Origin: a phage
Sequence record: NC_104726.1
Direction: 5' to 3' (one strand)
Length of the DNA: 64,000 bases
Shown: piece by piece, positions 2,137-56,857 of the stretch
Layout: every line of letters starts with the position of its first letter
Position numbering within the stretch: the first letter of the stretch is position 1
Program-made: the position numbers and the translations under genes
The notes under the pieces: generated by a model
What the model saw: the letters and a program-made list of their open reading frames with translations, nothing else
Database searches by the model: none
Told to the model about the DNA's origin: nothing

Positions 2137-5100
2137 TTACTTCAGTTTCTCTTGCAACCCAGTAACAACCTCTGTCAATTTTTTAACCTGCTCCTCAAGG
2201 GCGGTTATTTTATCGTCCTGTTCCCTGCAAACCTGGACAAGCAAGCCTGTTACGGCTGCGTAATCCACGCTATAGAATCTTTCCTCTGTTATCAAAGGAG
2301 TTCCATCTTGATCAGAGTTTGGGATTTCCTTTCTTTGCACGAAAGAGCTAACTGCTTCCGGCAGCGCTTCAAGCACTTCTTGTGCTATAACACCTGCATA
2401 AGGCATACCGTTCTCTTTAAGAGTGTAAGTATAACCCTTCATCTTCCGGATAGCTTCTAACGCATCAGGAATAACAGCTATGTTGTCTTTCAGGTCTCTG
2501 TCAGAGCTCTGATTGACAGATGTGCAATTCACTGCACCGTTTACAGAAAGATATCTTGATTTATCCGGCAAGGTACCGCAATGCCATACCCAATTTGCTT
2601 GAGACTCGTCAAGAACCTTAAACTCTAACACGTTTGGACGAGCCCCTGTGCTGCCGTTACCCCAATAATGCATATGGGCGGCATTAGCAGGCATGTTGCC
2701 ACCGTTATTAGTAACATGGCTTCCAGAAATATACACCTTTAACTCTGGGGTAGGTATTTCCCCTTCTGGGGTTGTTCCTCCATACCTGAAGCTAACACCA
2801 TTACCACCTGTTTGGGTCCACGGTCCCCAAGTGAAGACCTGTTTCACCATATTCCCATAACGTGTAAATCTATCGCCATGATAGGTAATATACTCTTGAA
2901 CACACCCATTACCATTATTGGCGTTATTTTGCAACACAATAAGTGTTCCGGCCTCATTTACGGGATAATGACGATCATATGTTGCATCATTATTTGCAGG
3001 CTGATGGTAAATACCTTCCCACAATCCGTGATAGGTGTTAAGGTCTGAAGTACCAAGACCCTGACCCCTGTGTTGCATAGCCTTATTCCAGGGATGGTGA
3101 TTACCACCTTCTATAGACCTGGTATACAAGTTACTTTGTCTGCCAGCAATCTGGAAAGCGTAGTTTCCAGAGAATCCTACAGATAAACCGCCTACAACCA
3201 TGGTATCTTGTGGGCCGTTAACATTACCAGCTATTATTTTTGACGGGTTGTTAGGCCCAAACTGGTTGTTCCAGTCTGCACCCGTGTGGCATACAAAACC
3301 ACCAGGAGCTGAGAAAGTGCCATCTTTGTTGAAATTGTAGAACTTATGAGCTGTACCTACAACATCGCGAACGATAACTTGACCAGCTTCCGGAGTAGAT
3401 CTGAACTCTGCCTGGCCTTGCAGTCTTGCACCATTACCACATTTAGAGGTAAAGGTGTTGTTGATCAGATCCTCTGTTCCTTCCGATGCAGCTTGGAACC
3501 CTGCGTTAGAGAACAGTGCTTTTCTAGTGGTCTGACTGCCAGGACAAATGTAGTCAATACCGTCTGCCCATAGCTCGACTTTTGGCATATTCATTTTGCT
3601 CATCACAGCATAGCGTTCAGCAGTGCCTATATAGTGCCACTGTGTGCCGCCACCAGTGTAGAACCCTGAAGTCCCTTTGAAGTCAACAATAGGTCTGGTG
3701 TTGGTATTATTATCTCCAAGAACAGCAAGATTCAAATCTGCTGACTGGAGAGGTGCAACGAACTTAACACCGTCCTGATTGTCTGTTACAGAGCCAACCT
3801 GGTAATCTTGCTCCCTGGTAAACACCTCGACAACATTTCTACTTGCGTATATGCTGACAGGGAAAGCACGCGCCTCTGCATAGAAAGCAACATATTCTTG
3901 TTTACCCCTTGTTGGAGCAACCATCCCAAGAAGTGCTTTTTCATTCTGGTAGAAATTTACTACCCCGTAGAAAGAGTCTCCTCTGTTTGTCCAACCACCA
4001 GTTCTATAGTGACACTGTAAGGTCGCACAGTTCATAGGGTCATTTCCAGATGAAGACCTGGTGACTATAGTAATATCTGTACCTGTCGAAGGGGCGTAAT
4101 ACGGATCTGTTCTAACGATGATTGGGTAGTATTTCCCATCTTCCATCCCTGCGGTTCTTGGCAGTGTTAAGAAGTCTTTTACACCTGCTGCTATAGGAAC
4201 TTTGAACAGATTCTGAGCGTCTGCTAAAGTTGTAGCCCCAGTGCCACCTGCGGCTTGAGGTAGAGGTTCCCACTTGGCCTTCCGGTTGTTATAAACACCC
4301 CATTCAAGCGTTCCTTCACCTTGCTCGTCCATACCGCCATCCCAGACAACCATCTTGGCGGCTTTCTTGGACCCCCAGAAACCTCTTTCTGCCCCTGAAC
4401 TACGGATCCACTCTCCAAGTCCCCAGTTTGCCAGCTGACCGTTCAGATCACCAACCTGCATATATTTAGGACAATCTAAGACCCCATCCTCACGGAAGCC
4501 TAAATAGCTATGAGTTTCAGATCCTTTTGCGCCTTTGTGCAGGTGGATTGTCAACCAAGCCTTATTGTCGTTTCTTACCTCAGAGTAGATCCTATACCCA
4601 TGCTCAAGGACACCGTCAGCGCCGTATTTATCCCCATGGAGAATACCTGATGGAGACTTAACCTCAGAAGTGCTTTGAGATAGGTAAAGGTTCCCGAAGG
4701 TAGGGGTATTTCTAGACCCGAGACCGATGTGCGATCTAAAGGTATCATCGTTACGAGGTCTGACCATCGGCTGCCATGCAGTCCACTGATTTGTGTTGGC
4801 CTGATAGGTTCTCAAATACCAAACATCTACGTTAGAGAATGGATAGTATTCCTGACGACAACCTGTACCGCCGTTAGCATTGTTCTGCCAGACAATCAAG
4901 TGACCAGCACCAGAACCTGCAGGGTAACCATTTGCCTCAGTTGCATAAGCAGTCATCGGCTGGTAGTATACACCATCCTGATTACCAGTCAAGTTATTGA
5001 TATTGAAATTTGGCTCAAGGGCTGCACGTTGCTTATAGAAAGCACCGATATTGATACGGACCCCAGCGGCATCTCTAGCCCCTGTGCCGCCTTGCTCTAT

Positions 5101-25969: not shown

Positions 25970-26774
25970 TTAGATAAAACGCTTGAACATAGAAGGTGAT
26001 GAGATTGATGGAATCACACAAGGAAGTGCTACCTCCTCTTTCTCCAGGAAATTAATCGCAGAAGCTACACAGTCTGCCCAGTCGTCTTTTCTGTTAAATG
26101 TTGATCTTTCCCCGTTGAATTTTTCAAGTTCAGTCAGAAATGCTTCCAGAGTATCAGGATGGAAACTGGATTTTACAATTCTCACCATTCCTTGTTGGGC
26201 AAGATTGGCAAAAGGTGAGAACCTTGTCAGTTTAGATTTGTTGGAAGGCATTGGGTCTTCTTCAACCCTAAACCCTTCGGCGAGCAGGGATCTGGAGGAG
26301 GTTAAGAACTCACTCTTACCTGCCTGCCCTGGGTCCACAGAGAAGACGATTATGCAATCATCACCATCGAACTGCGCCTGTTTCCTGATGATCACATCTC
26401 GTTCACCAGCCTTTTTACAGAACTTGCCTTCCAATCCTGTGGAATACCTCCCGTCATCCACGTTCTCAGGACAATAATCACCTGACAGGTAATAAAAGCC
26501 GTCGCTATCTTTACTTACCTTAATACTGGCAGTAAAGTCAGGAAATTTATTACCGGAAGTTCTCTCGGTTCCTGCCTTATCCCATGCCCTGCAAGATACT
26601 GATCCAAGGGGTACTCTATCGGCATCACGAAGGAAAGATCTTTGAAAATAGTTTGCACCCTCAGGCTTTGCAAACCAGTTACCATGGAGAAGCTGAGCTT
26701 TTTCCAGCTCTGGTAGACCTTCGAGGAAAGCAAGGTATTCTGGGTTGTCTCTCAAACAGACAGGATTATCGAAT
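25970..26774 (-). CDS. terL: terminase large subunit, exon 3 (nuclease domain)
   Basis: continues FDNPVCLRDNPEYLAFLEGLPELEKAQLLHGNW...; frame open upstream of annotated start to 26774; joins exon 2 in phase. Confidence 0.7.
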
Positions 26775-27753
26775 CCTTATATTCAAAGGTGGTCGCAACA
26801 CCACCCTCCGCACCATTACGTGCCGCTGCATGTTACCATGCAGAGTAGACTATATCACCACCCATCTCAGGGTGCTTCGCTTTTCGAGCGCCATAGGCTT
26901 GCGCCCTACTCCCTCTCGGGATAGTCGTTGAACTACATTACCAATCGTAATTGTTTGAAATATAGGTGTAAGTCTTACGGTCTTTTATTCCTTTAACAAC
27001 ACTAAAACTTACGCCCCACTTCTTAGCTATTTTATTTACACACAAAACCCTATCACTAAGATCCTCGCAGATACCTATTATCTTGTGCTCACTTATCCTA
27101 TTAGAGGTTGGCACTTTTCTAAAGTTAAACTCTTTAGAAATATCTGGGTATACTGAGCCATTCTTTATACCACTTACAAGTGGTTGATTGACACCAAACA
27201 TTTCACAAATGTCTTTTACCCTTGCACCTTGCTCTAACAGTCTACATATTTCAAGAGCAGTGGCATCATCTAGGGACCTGTATTTATTGACATAGTCCTT
27301 TTTAAGTCCCATTTCATGAGCATGATGTGTGTTTTCCTCAGGTGTTGTCCACTCAAGGTTCCATGCGGCGTTATTCAACTTATTGCCATCAAGGTGATTT
27401 ACTTGAGTTTTCACGCTGGGATTATCATTATCAACAAAAGTCATAGCAATCACTCTGTGAACGAGCACTTGGAACTTTTTACCGTCCTCGCACAAAGTTA
27501 CCATAGCATAGCCAGTCTTTTTCTGCACATTAGGATGGAGGAATTTATTAGAATACAGACTGTAAATTCTGCCATCGTATGTAGCACAATAATGATTGTA
27601 GCCTAAAAAGCCTAAATTTTTCATTTCAAACATCTCCCTACTACAGGTTCGGAAGGGTAATTATAGCTGCTGATTGTCCGTTTAGCAATCGGATTTTCCA
27701 GCAATTAACGAAGTTATTCGACGTGCATTTCTGCACGAAGCCACTATCATTTA
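26775..27753 (-). mobile_element. group I intron 2 in terL, carrying HNH homing endonuclease ORF
   Basis: interrupts terL between ...SFSFIGATI and FDNPVCL...; coding strand carries R-like GTTCAACGACTA (26933-26922) and S-like GATATAGTC; exon ends in U, intron ends in G; boundaries +/- ~15 nt. Confidence 0.6.
26938..27633 (-). CDS. intron-encoded HNH homing endonuclease
   Basis: 231 aa; HNH motif HRVIAMTFVDNDNPSVKTQVNHLDGNKLNNAAWNLEW; lies wholly inside terL intron 2. Confidence 0.75.
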   Translation of the reverse strand: MFEMKNLGFLGYNHYCATYDGRIYSLYSNKFLHPNVQKKTGYAMVTLCEDGKKFQVLVHRVIAMTFVDNDNPSVKTQVNHLDGNKLNNAAWNLEWTTPEENTHHAHEMGLKKDYVNKYRSLDDATALEICRLLEQGARVKDICEMFGVNQPLVSGIKNGSVYPDISKEFNFRKVPTSNRISEHKIIGICEDLSDRVLCVNKIAKKWGVSFSVVKGIKDRKTYTYISNNYDW

Positions 27754-28073
27754 ATGGTTGCGCCTATGAACGAGAATGACAACGGTCTTGGCTTGATCTC
27801 TACGCCAAGTCCGTTAACCGTGGTGTATTTCTCTATCAACTCTTCTTTAGAATCTCCCCATATAAATTCACCGTCGCGTCGGATAAAATATCTTTTCTTA
27901 CCGCATTTCTCCGGATCTGGATACCCTTCATCGTCCAACCACCATCTAACCAGTTTGGCAAGCATGTGTTCTGAATCTGGGTTACAGCTGATAACCATTC
28001 TTGATGGATACTTTGACTGAGATCGCAGACGAGACATCAGATAGTCTATCTGCTCCCATTCGAATTGTGTCGT
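27754..28073 (-). CDS. terL: terminase large subunit, exon 2
   Basis: TTQFEWEQIDYLMSRLRSQSKYPSRMVISCNPD...; in-frame continuation upstream of the annotated Met. Confidence 0.65.
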
Positions 28074-28390
28074 CTATGTTCGGGCAAGGTCGCTAGTCTT
28101 GCCCCGCCATTTTTCAGGCAGCTGCATGTCTCCATGCAGACCAGACTATATCTTATAAGCGACAACAACCGCTTACCCTCCCGTTTCGAATCGCTTGATT
28201 CTACGTCTTTCGACTAGTCGTTGAACGTTCATCCTCTCGGATGCTTCGCTGCGGATTATCTAAATTAACACACTGTTACCATACCTTCGATCTCTCTTCG
28301 AAGCCTCTATCATGTTACCATGACAGGTTGGTGGTGTCAATAATAAAGATTTCCCCGCAATTAGGGAGGTTTTACGAGAGCTACAAATTA
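28074..28390 (-). mobile_element. group I intron 1 in terL (no ORF)
   Basis: separates Walker-B exon (…MVCFDEG) from exon 2; coding strand has GTTCAACGACTAG (28225-28213) and AAGATATAGTCTGG (28154-28141); begins after U, ends with G; shares CTGCATG-N5-CATGCAG hairpin with intron 2. Confidence 0.6.
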
Positions 28391-28816
28391 ACCCTCATCG
28401 AAGCAAACCATGGTGTACTCAAGCCCTTGATGGTTAAGCTTATCTTGTACATACTCCATGTGGCAGTATTTTACAACAGCTCCCTTTTTGCTTCTATCCC
28501 ACTTACCAGTGTTAGGATCAAACCGTGGAAAAATGAACTTATGATCCTTCTCTCTGAACTTTGGCTTAATGTTTTCAGGCAGATCACTATAAATAGCTAC
28601 TGCTTTAGGCCATAGTCCACCCTCACCCTCCAACTGTGGAGTTGTTCTTCGGAACATAACCACAGAGCTGTGGGGGTCATCAATAATTTTAAGCGGCATC
28701 AACTGCAAAAGGAACGACTTGCCAGACCCTGCGGCACCGCCGATTACCAAAATATCTGCATCGTTTTCGAGGATCATCTTCTGCTTTTCAGAACACGGTC
28801 CGTAAATCTTAGACAT
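28391..28816 (-). CDS. terL: terminase large subunit, exon 1 (ATPase N-terminus)
   Basis: Walker A GGAAGSGKS and Walker B MVCFDE; ORF track 28388..28816 ends at an in-frame stop that is the first codon of the intron. Confidence 0.75.
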
Positions 28817-29103
28817 TAACCTCTCTCCTTTGGAAACAGTGTTCTAATATAGTCTTGCAAAATGATCAATTTAGCTCTATCATTGCTACAAGACAGATTA
28901 TTATCCCTCATAATGCCAGAATTCACCGCATCTGGCGCACCTTTCTTTAAAGGTATAGCTTTAGCAGGTGGTTTCATGGCACCTTCCGGGGGTTTAACAA
29001 TCAACCTTCCTACATCTGGAGGGTCAATCTTGTATTCTTTCTCAACACTGGTTGCACACCCACATAATAACAAGCACGCAATAAACAGTGTAGCAACTCT
29101 CAT
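28816..29103 (-). CDS. o-spanin (Rz1-like outer-membrane lipoprotein)
   Basis: 95 aa; signal peptide with lipobox LLLCGC; Pro-rich; downstream of i-spanin. Confidence 0.6.
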   Translation of the reverse strand: MRVATLFIACLLLCGCATSVEKEYKIDPPDVGRLIVKPPEGAMKPPAKAIPLKKGAPDAVNSGIMRDNNLSCSNDRAKLIILQDYIRTLFPKERG

Positions 29104-30164: not shown

Positions 30165-30263
30165 GGTGCTAGGTGATGGAATCGAACCACCTATGTATTC
30201 AACGACTACCTCGTCTATTTTCAGGATTAAAAATCCTCGCCCTTGCCAAAGGGCTTACCTAGC
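30165..30263 (-). tRNA. atypical tRNA-Lys (anticodon UUU) with ~29-nt extra hairpin in variable region
   Basis: acceptor GCTAGGT/ACCTAGC, D arm GCCC-TTTGGCAA-GGGC, anticodon arm AGGA-TTTTTAA-TCCT, T arm GGTGG-TTCGATT-CCATC; 99 nt, extra segment AAAATAGACGAGGTAGTCGTTGAATACAT between anticodon and T arms. Confidence 0.5.
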
Positions 30264-54201: not shown

Positions 54202-54480
54202 ATGAGCTGCGAAAAATCTTTTTTCATCATCATTTACGGTAAGGATAACTGCCCACATTGTGTCAGAGCAAAAGAATTTGCAATCAGCAAAGGTCTGCCT
54301 TTTGTATATAAGACACTTGGCGAGGGCTACACAAAAGAAGAGCTTATTGAGAAGTGTAGTCCAATCGTCCCCCGAACGTTGCCGCAGATCTTCTTAGAAA
54401 GCGATCTTGACAGTATCCATATAGGCGGTGCCGACGATTTCATCTCTTTTGTTAAGAATGGTTTTGGAGAGAAAAAGTGA
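54202..54480 (+). CDS. glutaredoxin-like protein (NrdH/Grx)
   Basis: 92 aa; CPHC redox motif near N-terminus; between nrdB and nrdD. Confidence 0.65.
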   Translation: MSCEKSFFIIIYGKDNCPHCVRAKEFAISKGLPFVYKTLGEGYTKEELIEKCSPIVPRTLPQIFLESDLDSIHIGGADDFISFVKNGFGEKK

Positions 54481-55337
54481 AAGTTGTAAAACGGGACGGT
54501 AGAGAAGAGTTCTATAACGGAATTAAGGTGATCAAGGCGGCAGAGTCCGCCTTACTTGAGTCTGGACATACTGAAGAAGAAGCTTACCGGATCGCTTGTG
54601 CGGTTAATGAAGTTGTTGCTAACAATCTGCCAACCGACCAGTGCACGATCTCTGTAAAAAATATCCATATCCTTGTTGAAGATGCTCTTATGGATATGGG
54701 TTTAAAATGTGCAGCCAGAGAATACATCCAGTATAGACAGACAAGAGATAATAACAGAGAGGCAGGTGGAAAACTGCTTGCAGATATTAGTGGCTTCTTG
54801 GATCGAACTTGTGATGAATTTACAAAAGAAAACGCAAATAAGCCTACTAATCATGTACACACTCATCGCGACCTGCTTGCAGGTATTCTTAGCAAACACC
54901 TTGCATCAACACAGATCCTGCCAGACCGTGTCTCCGAAGAGCACAATAAAGGCTTCATCCATGTGCATGATCTTGACTACTTGATCAGTCCGTTAACAAA
55001 CTGTTGCTTGGTAAATTATCCAGATATGTTGGAAAACGGATTCAACATTGGTAACGCCCATGTCAGTAAGCCGAAGTCAATAGGGGTTGCAACAACAATC
55101 CTTAGCCAAATCTCTAGTGCGGTAGCTAGTGCTCAATATGGTGGTCAGACTATGAGCCATATTGATCATTATCTGGCACAGTATGCTGAAGCGACCTATG
55201 AGAAGAACCTTAAATTTTGCCAGGAACATTGGTTGCCAGATGCTGAAACTGTTGCAATGCAAATGACAGATAAAGACGTGTTTGACAGCATGCAGACGTT
55301 GCTTTATCAGATCAACACACTAACCTCGGTAAACGGT
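54477..55337 (+). CDS. nrdD: anaerobic ribonucleotide reductase, exon 1
   Basis: GTG start overlapping grx stop; ATP-cone; ...FIHVHDLDY...TNCCLVNY...; ends ...QINTLTSVNG, colinear with T4 NrdD ...VNTLFSSNG. Confidence 0.75.
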
Positions 55338-55594
55338 TAACAAACTGGCCGTTTTAAAACTCTGCTAACCTTAGTATGAGGGGTCAGCTGATCGCTGGCT
55401 AACGGGGAACGCTAAGGCGAAAGCTATGCCAATCCCGTGACTAGCTTCACAAGGAGTGAGGCGGTTGTAACGACTAACCTTTTGGTGTAGGGATTATGGA
55501 AGATTCCGAAACGCAGGGGTCTGATTAAGAATCACACGGTGTGATTTCAGGCAAGAGATAGTCTGGCCTTGTGGAAACATAAGGGTGGGGACCG
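55338..55594 (+). mobile_element. group I intron in nrdD (no ORF)
   Basis: 257 nt with stops in all frames between exon 1 (...SVNG) and exon 2 (QTPFITL...); exon ends in U, intron ends in G; R-like GTTGTAACGACTAA and S-like AAGAGATAGTCTGG. Confidence 0.6.
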
Positions 55595-56857
55595 CAAACC
55601 CCTTTTATCACATTAAGTTTAGGACTGGATACCTCGGTCTTTGGTAGAATGATTACCAAAAATTACTTGAAAGTCCACAAAATGGGTCTTGGTGAAGAAC
55701 GGATCACACCTGTGTTCCCTAAAGTGCTGTTCTTCCTAGAAGAGGGTGTCAACATGAACCCTGAGGATCCTAACTATGATTTGAAACGATTAGCTCTGGA
55801 ATGCTGTGCAGAACGTATCTACCCTGACTTCGTATCTGTACCACTAAATAGAAAAGTGACAGGCTCGACAGATGGCAAAGTAACGAGCATGGGTTGCCGG
55901 AGTTTTCTTAGCAAATACAGTGACTTGGAAACAGGCGAGGAGAAATATCTTGGCAGATTTAACTTAGGCGTTGTTAGCCTTAACCTACCAATGATTGCGG
56001 CAAAAGCTAAGACGGAAGGTGTTGATTTCTTTGCAGTTCTTGACGAATACTTGGATCTTGCATACGAGGCTCACCTTGTAAGGGTTAACCGTCTAAAAGG
56101 AACAAAGGCAGGGCAGAACCCCATCATGTGGTGTGAAGGAGCTCTTGCTCGCCTGGATCCTGAAGAGAGTATTGATAAACTCTTCTATGACGGGTACGCT
56201 TCCATCAGCATTGGGTATATTGGTGTGTATGAAACCTGTCAGATTTTGGGTAGAGAGGGTGACAAGGCTTTAGCTCTTGGAATCCTTCAGCACATGAGAG
56301 ATGCTTGTGAGCGATACAAGAAGGAAAGTAGACTAGCGTTTAGCTTGTACGGCACTCCTTCTGAGAGTCTATGCTATAAAGCTGCAACCTGTCTGGATCG
56401 TGAATATCCGGAAGTGTTGAAGCACGAGCATGAATATCTCACCAACAGTTTCCATCAGCCAGTATGGATCAATAGCTCTCCTTTTGATAAGTGGGAGTAT
56501 GAGGAAGGTTTTGCTATGATCTCCTCCGGTGGCAACATCGGATACGTAGAGACACCTAACCTGAAAAACAACCTTGATGCTTTAGAGGCTCTTGTTGACT
56601 TCGGGTATAAACACATTATGTATTTTGGTATTAACCAACCTGTGGATAAATGTCTCAAGTGTGGTTTCTCTGGTGAGTTCAGTGCAACAGCTAAAGGGTT
56701 CTGCTGCCCTGCGTGCGGATGCCACGATGAACAATATATCTCAGTGATCCGAAGAGTGTCTGGATACCTTTCCAGTCCTAACTCCCGTCCTTACAATAAA
56801 GGTAAGCAAGCGGAAGTTATCGAGCGAGTTAAGCACTACGGAAGTTGTGGTTGCTGA
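55595..56857 (+). CDS. nrdD: anaerobic ribonucleotide reductase, exon 2
   Basis: QTPFITLSLGLDTS... colinear with T4 NrdD QTPFVTITFGTGTD; C-terminal zinc site CLKCGF...CPACGC and glycyl-radical motif RVSGYL. Confidence 0.75.
   Translation, partial: QTPFITLSLGLDTSVFGRMITKNYLKVHKMGLGEERITPVFPKVLFFLEEGVNMNPEDPNYDLKRLALECCAERIYPDFVSVPLNRKVTGSTDGKVTSMGCRSFLSKYSDLETGEEKYLGRFNLGVVSLNLPMIAAKAKTEGVDFFAVLDEYLDLAYEAHLVRVNRLKGTKAGQNPIMWCEGALARLDPEESIDKLFYDGYASISIGYIGVYETCQILGREGDKALALGILQHMRDACERYKKESRLAFSLYGTPSESLCYKAATCLDREYPEVLKHEHEYLTNSFHQPVWINSSPFDKWEYEEGFAMISSGGNIGYVETPNLKNNLDALEALVDFGYKHIMYFGINQPVDKCLKCGFSGEFSATAKGFCCPACGCHDEQYISVIRRVSGYLSSPNSRPYNKGKQAEVIERVKHYGSCGC

Follow-up and report, generated by a model that had tools for sequence, protein, structure and literature searches.

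A group I intron in the large terminase gene has been described in the Lactobacillus phage LL-H (Mikkonen and Alatossava, 1995, cited in PMC3606486). The TerL intron of Certrevirus CB7 bears an HNH gene, and its splicing was shown by RT-PCR (PMC7344957). In phiTE, also a Certrevirus, we found by tblastn that TerL is split and that an HNH gene lies between the pieces. These phages resemble the locus studied here in carrying a group I intron in terL, but they have a single intron and not two. The twin-intron terL is itself already known: it is annotated in NC_011041/DQ832317 and was published for rV5, whose terminase introns are treated in the section "Introns in terminase" of Kropinski et al. 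(2013; Virol J 10:76; PMC3606486).

We analyzed a stretch of phage DNA of 64,000 nucleotides (NC_104726.1; hereafter the window), for which a preliminary description had proposed a terL gene of three exons separated by two group I introns. The window belongs to a Vequintavirus (rV5-like coliphage) and is 97.5% identical in DNA sequence to phage V5 across 2847 nt. In rV5/V5 the same gene, rv5_gp065 (ORF64ABC), has the same two insertion sites, an ORF-less intron 1 and an HNH-bearing intron 2. It differs from that of the window by point changes only, including an extra A in intron 1 (320 nt in the window, 319 nt in rV5) and a substitution at the 3' end of this intron (ATAGACG in the window, ATAAACG in rV5). 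Judging from sequence comparison, we consider it about 95% probable that terL of the window is a minus-strand gene composed of three exons and two group I introns.

Exons of terL and the spliced product

The ORF list of the region includes three minus-strand ORFs, at 28388-28816 (containing Walker A and Walker B), 27747-28037 (the middle part) and 25970-26755 (the nuclease domain). Their interpretation as consecutive parts of one TerL is supported by the single Terminase_6N match and the identity to rV5 TerL that appear after splicing. Searched against Pfam unspliced, the fragments scored 25.6 and 19.1 bits with Terminase_6N and 29.3 bits with Terminase_6C.

Exon 1 (28391-28816, minus strand, 142 codons) was delimited from the ORF, the Pfam Terminase_6N match and the junction seen in the intron-1-less allele of phage PDX. 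It contains the Walker A motif GGAAGSGKS at 28738-28715 and the Walker B motif MVCFDE, which ends at 28394, and terminates with ...GAG GGT, so that U is at position -1. Exon 2 (27754-28070, minus strand, 317 nt) was defined by allele comparison and by the extension of Terminase_6N across both junctions; its first codons are ACA CAA TTC (T Q F) and its 3' end is ...GCA ACC AT, again with U at -1. Exon 3 (25970-26774, minus strand, 805 nt with the stop codon) begins with A TTC GAT AAT (..I F D N) and encodes the RNase H-like nuclease domain, recognized as Pfam Terminase_6C. One insertion site directly follows Walker B; the second falls within GATIFDNP, a conserved segment.

Removal of both introns yields a CDS of 1548 nt encoding a TerL of 515 aa, rather than the 1551 nt and 516 aa first proposed, with the junctions reading ...CFDEG-TQFEW... 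and ...GATIFDNP... in the protein. The former had been given as ...CFDEG-TTQFEW..., which agrees neither with the natural alleles nor with ABI79304.1, the annotated three-exon TerL of rV5. The spliced protein is 100% identical to ABI79304.1 and also to TerL of phage bov10K2, which is encoded by an uninterrupted gene. It holds GGAAGSGKS and MVCFDE, with the ATPase and nuclease domains on one polypeptide. Terminase_6N (PF03237) gave one match of 72.2 bits to residues 25-294, which therefore crosses both exon junctions, and Terminase_6C (PF17289) matched residues 394-489 with 27 bits. In tblastn searches the spliced protein aligned full-length and in a single piece with the uninterrupted TerL of Seunavirus, phi92, Felix O1-like and ICP1 phages. 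A PDB sequence search with the spliced protein returned nothing at E ≤ 0.01, and hence TerL has no solved close relative at this threshold.

The two introns and their predicted splicing

Intron 1 (28071-28390, minus strand, 320 nt) contains no ORF and matches the Rfam group I model RF00028 with 84 bits (E 6.4e-20), exceeding the gathering score of 50 bits. Motif searches located J6/7-P7 (GTTCAACGACTA / GUUCAACGACUA) at 28226-28215, one position from the 28225 given previously, and J8/7-P7' (AAGATATAGTCTGG / AAGAUAUAGUCUGG) at 28154-28141, followed by the P9 hairpin (28139-28122). In the Rfam alignment P1 forms between GAGGGU at the exon end and the internal guide sequence, GCUCUC (28381-28376), and places a U·G wobble at the splice site; the intron ends with the omega-G, at 28071. 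In comparison with rV5, a compensatory change from C-G to U-A was revealed in the P5-extension hairpin.

Intron 2 (26775-27753, minus strand, 979 nt) was defined by its RF00028 matches and by the junction in phage magaca, where this intron is absent. At the gathering threshold (50 bits) only intron 1 was found in the window, and intron 2 surfaced at the E-value threshold as two partial matches of 31.2 bits (E 9e-6 locally) and 24.4 bits. The low score is explained by a 711-nt ORF insert, which fills the P6 loop and splits the match: a natural ORF-less allele of 268 nt from phage RudolfGeigy scored 95.6 bits (E 4.6e-24), and in the alignment of the alleles the ORF block takes the place of the P6 hairpin while the rest is nearly identical. 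The scores of both introns are far beyond chance, in agreement with their initial assignment to group I.

The guide sequence of intron 2, AUAGUGGCU, is located at 27747-27739 and forms P1 with exon ACCAU and intron UA; the Rfam alignment pairs ACCAU(UA) with (UA)GUGG(C)U, leaving one A·C mismatch in the extension. P3-P5 occupy approximately 27715-27666. The loop that bears the ORF is closed by P6, a helix in which 27665-27655 pair over a long range with 26944-26934. According to motif searches, J6/7-P7 (GTTCAACGACTA) is at 26933-26922, where the preliminary description had placed it, and P7' (GATATAGTCTAC) is at 26856-26845, followed by P9 at 26843-26826. The omega-G at 26775 is invariant in all intron-bearing alleles examined. 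The minimum free energy (MFE) fold of a mini-intron 2 with the ORF removed recovered P6, the P4/P5 hairpin, P7 and P9; since the P3/P7 pseudoknot is beyond MFE folding, this fold was used for checking the long-range P6 alone. P10 pairings are weak in both introns (about 3 bp).

The splice-site rule holds for both introns, with U at -1 and G at the intron end. According to the proposed mechanism, terL would be transcribed as one minus-strand pre-mRNA, in which each intron, folded into a group I core (P1-P9), would bind guanosine and be excised by two transesterifications. The cuts at intron 1 would follow U 28391, the last nucleotide of the exon, and G 28071, the last of the intron, and those at intron 2 would follow 27754 and 26775, giving a 1548-nt mRNA translated into the 515-aa TerL. 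An in-frame TAA, inside intron 1, directly follows its 5' splice site, and a TGA stands two codons past that of intron 2. Unspliced RNA would therefore yield a truncated protein, and packaging would depend on both splicing events. We infer from sequence and comparative evidence that the introns are self-splicing.

Natural terL alleles and alternative explanations

To describe the variation of the locus, we used a spread choice of 50 full-length vequintavirus terL loci. The gene was uninterrupted and exactly 1548 bp long in 26 of them, aligning with the spliced CDS in a single piece by megablast. The other lengths in the sample (1867, 2431, 2135, 1816, 2846 and 3410 bp) represent every combination of the intron forms; a length of 2527 bp was also found. 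Intron 1 is either absent, or ORF-less, or 883 nt long, its P8 then bearing an endonuclease-VII-like gene (Pfam PF02945, 76 bits), while intron 2 is either absent, or ORF-less (266-268 nt), or 979 nt long with HNH. The window carries the ORF-less form of the intron 1 that holds the endonuclease-VII-like gene in sister phages, and it has the rarer V5 configuration.

Relatives lacking intron 1 (e.g., PDX), intron 2 (e.g., magaca) or both are exactly colinear with the spliced CDS; in magaca the continuous ORF reads ...SFSFIGATIFDNPVCLRDNPEYL... at the site of intron 2. In RudolfGeigy/Bas52, HdK5, rV5_ev146, PDX, magaca, I29 and FFH2, among others, the insertion sites are the same as in the window, and the introns, where present, are more than 95% identical. 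When introns were cut out at these junctions, all 12 loci examined gave a 515-aa TerL with 0-2 differences. The presence of introns is patchy even though the terL exons are 93-98% identical among the phages. Intron-1-plus alleles have GGT|ACA and intron-1-minus alleles GG(A/C) ACG, the -1 U being confined to the intron-bearing ones; similarly, ACC AT in intron-2-plus alleles corresponds to ACA AT in intron-2-minus alleles. The variants are synonymous; those that accompany intron 1 provide its -1 U, and those that accompany intron 2 add a C-G pair to its P1.

Could the three ORFs encode separate polypeptides of a split terminase, with the spacers being intergenic, a free-standing HNH gene in one of them, and no splicing? 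The pieces are often entered in GenBank as separate "terminase" CDSs (e.g., magaca_90/91, HdK5), and protein databases contain many TerL fragments, of 142, 249, 261 and 362 aa. However, separate CDSs are the usual output of automatic gene callers at introns. Furthermore, the exon 3 ORF as listed starts at a TTG inside the domain and has no proper start, both spacers match the group I model, one Pfam domain bridges both junctions, and in roughly half of the sister phages sampled the gene is uninterrupted, at 1548 nt, all of which makes a split terminase very improbable. We regard it as equally improbable that decay has deprived one or both introns of splicing, so that terL is a pseudogene of a defective or assembly-artefact genome. 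Such decay might be suspected because intron 2 of the window scores below the Rfam threshold and intron 1 has two private changes (an additional A and, close to the 3' end, a change from A to G). Yet the same configuration exists, at 97.5% identity, in plaque-forming V5/rV5 and in O157 typing phage 5, and P3, P4, P6, P7 and P9 are intact and nearly identical to those of alleles scoring 84-96 bits. Purifying selection on the exons is strong, the window and rV5 having no amino-acid differences.

The remaining alternative accepts two introns and concerns the 3' end of intron 1. Both ends of intron 2 and the 5' end of intron 1 were borne out as originally proposed, but the 3' end of intron 1 had been set at G 28074, which makes the intron 317 nt long and adds one Thr codon (3 nt), giving a 516-aa TerL with ...DEGTTQFEW.... 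This position is indeed G in the window and is preceded by AUA, and the following ACGA could slightly lengthen P10 with the guide region. On the other hand, 28074 is A in four of the five other intron-1-bearing phages examined (rV5, HdK5, rV5_ev146 and RudolfGeigy), whereas the G at 28071 is invariant in all five. The gap relative to PDX is 320 nt, not 317 nt, and all intron-1-minus alleles encode EGTQFEW. The 516-aa sequence was not found in a collection of 15 billion proteins, while that of 515 aa is identical to the curated protein of rV5. On allele comparison and the exact-sequence look-up we rejected the candidate splice site at 28074, which we consider highly unlikely, in favor of 28071.

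The HNH gene and comparison with known systems

An HNH homing endonuclease gene of the I-HmuI type, missing from the preliminary description, is located wholly within intron 2 (26938-27633, minus strand). It encodes 231 aa from the ATG at 27633, but the ATG at 27624 (228 aa), 9 nt after GGGAG, is the more likely start. Its stop codon UAA sits within the 3' strand of P6. Pfam HNH_3 was detected at residues 57-102 with 28.0 bits (cut-off 24.8), and matches to helix-turn-helix (HTH) models at residues 119-154. The rV5 counterpart is annotated as an HNH homing endonuclease (rv5_gp066).

Presumably, the HNH enzyme would nick or cut the intron-less terL of co-infecting phages, leading to homing by recombinational repair. 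The patchy distribution of the introns and the synonymous differences in their flanks are circumstantial signs that endonuclease-driven homing may operate at this locus. It can also be tentatively proposed, as a possibility we consider rather less than even, that the natural terL alleles of vequintaviruses show the stages of a complete homing cycle side by side, and that the intron-linked synonymous changes both tune P1 and make the intron-bearing alleles immune to the endonuclease. If this is true, the HNH and endonuclease-VII-like enzymes would be weapons between co-infecting phages, cutting the essential packaging gene of a rival, and the window would be merely one ordinary allele of the homing system.

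The main importance of the finding lies in annotation quality: automatic gene callers cut TerL into two or three fragments, and the correct product is the 515-aa TerL from three exons.

Among introns of other genes, that of T4 td, a self-splicing phage group I intron, is similar to intron 1: the J8/7-P7-P9 region is 81% identical over 79 nt, and the P9 hairpin CUGCAUGGnGACAUGCAG is common to both. The ORF of I-TevI is located in P6 of the td intron, as is the endonuclease ORF in intron 2 here. The differences are that the host gene of the td intron is thymidylate synthase, that I-TevI is a GIY-YIG enzyme and not an HNH one, and that intron 1 has no ORF and, in the Rfam alignment, no P2.

The protein encoded in intron 2 aligns with I-HmuI, the HNH nicking homing endonuclease from the DNA polymerase intron of Bacillus phage SPO1 (PDB 1U3E; E 3.1e-11, residues 11-154), the alignment including the region of the HNH motif, and like I-HmuI it has a C-terminal HTH DNA-binding region. 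The sequence identity between them is low, and the host gene and target site are different. As the rV5 system was described first, in 2013, no new principle emerges from the window; with mobile group I introns residing in conserved regions of an essential gene, this phage offers a textbook case.

Exon-intron structure of terL and the predicted spliced product

The preliminary description had read three minus-strand ORFs as parts of one TerL, and all were found in the ORF listing with the motifs quoted for them: 28388-28816 (142 aa; GGAAGSGKS and MVCFDE), 27747-28037 (96 aa; SCNPDSEH) and 25970-26755 (DNPEYLAFLEGL and HGNW). Taken singly, the pieces gave weak Pfam matches (Terminase_6N, 25.6 and 19.1 bits; Terminase_6C, 29.3 bits). 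The segments between them are indeed closed in the TerL frame, in intron 1 by a TAA immediately 3' of exon ...GAG GGT and in intron 2 by a TGA two codons past exon ...ACC AT.

Natural alleles fix the intron borders: site 1 of phage PDX is shorter than that of the window by exactly 320 nt, and magaca, without intron 2, has the uninterrupted reading frame ...SFSFIGATIFDNPVCLRDNPEYL... there. On the minus strand the gene is composed of exon 1 (28816-28391, 426 nt), intron 1 (28390-28071, 320 nt), exon 2 (28070-27754, 317 nt), intron 2 (27753-26775, 979 nt) and exon 3 (26774-25970, 805 nt). The exon-U/intron-G rule holds at both introns, each having U at exon position -1 and G as the last intron base. 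The 3' end first proposed for intron 1, 28074, lies 3 nt too early: this base is A in rV5, HdK5, rV5_ev146 and RudolfGeigy (ATAAACG), whereas the G at 28071 is invariant among the alleles compared.

Conceptual splicing gives a coding sequence of 1548 nt, which aligned by megablast in one piece, over a span of exactly 1548 bp, with the terL of many genomes that have no interruption, and 12 of the 12 terL loci examined yielded a 515-aa TerL with 0-2 differences. This product is identical to ABI79304.1 ("terminase large subunit [Escherichia phage V5]"), whereas the 516-aa form proposed earlier is in no database. It has one Terminase_6N match (72.2 bits, residues 25-294) spanning both junctions, and is colinear with the intron-less genes of other phages, each aligned as a single tblastn piece: Seunavirus (69% identity), Klebsiella phages (66-67%), phi92 (40%), Felix O1-like phages (34.5%) and ICP1 (34%).

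It should be mentioned that an o-spanin (Rz1-like lipoprotein) gene (28816-29103, minus strand) overlaps the terL start codon at 28816 through ATGA; the spanin pair is therefore located directly upstream of the terminase gene and not in a lysis cassette, as was also described for rV5, CB7 and PVP-SE1 (PMC7344957). The tRNA cluster upstream of terL includes an odd 99-nt tRNA-like gene (30165-30263, minus strand), called tRNA-??? with a 4-base anticodon (atcc) by ARAGORN and scoring just 35.5 bits with the Rfam tRNA model. Possible readings are a pseudo-tRNA, a tRNA with an intron or one resembling a frameshift suppressor.

Structure of the two introns and their endonuclease genes

Both inserts proved to be group I introns by comparison with Rfam RF00028, and the core motifs quoted earlier were located in both. 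Intron 1 gave a full-length match (28400-28122; 84 bits, E 6.4e-20), with GTTCAACGACTA at 28226-28215, AAGATATAGTCTGG at 28154-28141 and a P1 of GAGGGU and GCUCUC including the U·G wobble (RF00028 alignment). In its P5-extension hairpin, CUGUCAUGGUAACAUGAUAG in the window replaces CUGUUAUGGUAACAUAAUAG of rV5, a compensatory C-G to U-A change that supports the predicted fold. Two further changes relative to rV5 are private to the window: one additional A (CUGAAAAAUGG) and, 3 nt ahead of the omega-G, G in place of A.

Many sister phages have an intron 1 of 883 nt that contains a 196-aa ORF of the endonuclease VII family (PF02945, 76 bits), e.g., at 2476-3066 of the HdK5 locus (L005) and 1497-2087 of the rV5_ev146 locus (L006). 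This ORF is inserted in P8, where the window has a hairpin (about 28165-28148); the window intron 1 is the ORF-less state.

Intron 2 of the window gave no match to RF00028 at the gathering threshold and two partial matches (31.2 and 24.4 bits) at a relaxed one, because a 231-aa ORF (27633-26938) lies inside it. The same intron without the ORF in RudolfGeigy (268 nt) scored 95.6 bits (E 4.6e-24). The second copy of GTTCAACGACTA is located at 26933-26922 and GATATAGTCTAC at 26856-26845; P1 comprises ACCAU and GUGG(C)U, including the U·G wobble (RF00028 alignment). In the alignment, the 711-nt ORF block takes the place of a short hairpin that forms P6 in the ORF-less allele. A predicted long-range helix between CUAUA(A)UUACC (27665-27655) and GGUAAUGUAG (within 26944-26934) would close the ORF-bearing loop, with the ORF stop codon in its 3' strand.

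Judged by its matches to Pfam HNH_3 (28 bits), an HTH motif and PDB 1U3E (E 3.1e-11), the intron 2 ORF encodes a putative I-HmuI-type HNH homing endonuclease. Its start at 27633 (231 aa) follows the rV5 annotation, and the second ATG at 27624 (228 aa, HdK5 annotation) has better spacing from a likely ribosome-binding site, GGGAG. The latter is part of a small hairpin predicted in 27624-27665 (CCCUUCC...GGGAG; minus strand), which may control translation of the endonuclease, as in T4 I-TevI.

Intron states in vequintaviruses

The terL region of the window is 97.5% identical to that of Escherichia phage V5/rV5, and terL was found in about 120 vequintavirus genomes. Even sampling of 50 full-length loci gave 26 without an intron (1548 bp) and one, from phage V18, with a span of 1556 bp. 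Intron 1 alone was present without an ORF in seven loci (1867 bp) and with the endonuclease-VII-like gene in nine (2431 bp); intron 2 alone, ORF-less, was found in two (1814-1816 bp). Both introns occurred without ORFs in three loci (2135-2136 bp), in the V5 and window configuration in one (2846 bp) and each with an endonuclease gene in one (3410 bp). Intron 2 alone with the HNH gene (2527 bp) was seen outside this sample. Direct inspection of representative loci confirmed the intron content given for the 2431, 2135, 1814 and 3410 bp classes. This spread is the pattern expected if mobile introns are gained, lose their endonuclease genes and are themselves lost, in repeated cycles.

Synonymous exon differences follow intron presence perfectly in 12 loci: GGT|ACA with and GG(A/C) ACG without intron 1, ACC AT with and ACA AT without intron 2. 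At intron 1 they provide the -1 U and at intron 2 a C-G pair of P1. Co-conversion in homing, or selection either for splicing or for immunity to the endonuclease, would be consistent with them, the choice being a matter of inference. On sequence grounds, the arrangement is best explained by one terL pre-mRNA that would splice itself at both sites in the ordinary group I manner; synthesis of TerL, and hence packaging, would then depend on both events, while the HNH enzyme would drive intron mobility. The nearest experiment on such splicing is RT-PCR for the HNH-bearing TerL intron of Certrevirus CB7 (PMC7344957).

In about 18-19 GenBank records (MG0656xx, "Campylobacter phage A142, C12, C2 ..."), whose labels name Campylobacter jejuni as host, terL and nrdD show 96-98% identity to those of E. 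coli vequintaviruses and share their intron polymorphisms; this host label looks doubtful.

Previous annotation and the nrdD intron candidate

The twin-intron arrangement is correct and already known. The rV5 reference record (NC_011041/DQ832317) gives terL as a three-piece join, "ORF64ABC", with an HNH homing endonuclease within, and Kropinski et al. (2013; PMC3606486) included a section "Introns in terminase", acknowledging D. Shub's help with finding the intron. Joins are also annotated in RudolfGeigy (a BASEL phage) and rV5_ev146. The preliminary observation is thus confirmed and its interpretation supported with a 3-nt correction. Beyond that short published statement we add small points only: the intron 1 junction as corrected against the preliminary description, the placement of the endonuclease genes in P6 and P8, the intron-linked synonymous changes and the tally of allele configurations. 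Because the introns went unrecognised, mis-annotation of TerL is widespread: fragments of 142, 249, 261 and 362 aa form hundreds of separate "terminase family protein" entries, some with E. coli or Shigella as source organism, and terL is split in records including magaca, HdK5 and navn.

A candidate for a third group I intron, without an ORF, is located in the anaerobic ribonucleotide reductase gene nrdD (55328-55584, plus strand), separating ORFs 54477-55340 and 55649-56857. Its RF00028 score of 29.8 bits is below threshold (local E 3.6e-5). The region measures 2381 bp in the window and 2124 bp in sister phages, a 257-nt difference equal to the Rfam match length, and longer forms with HNH genes are found in other phages. 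This candidate recalls the nrdD (sunY) intron of phage T4.
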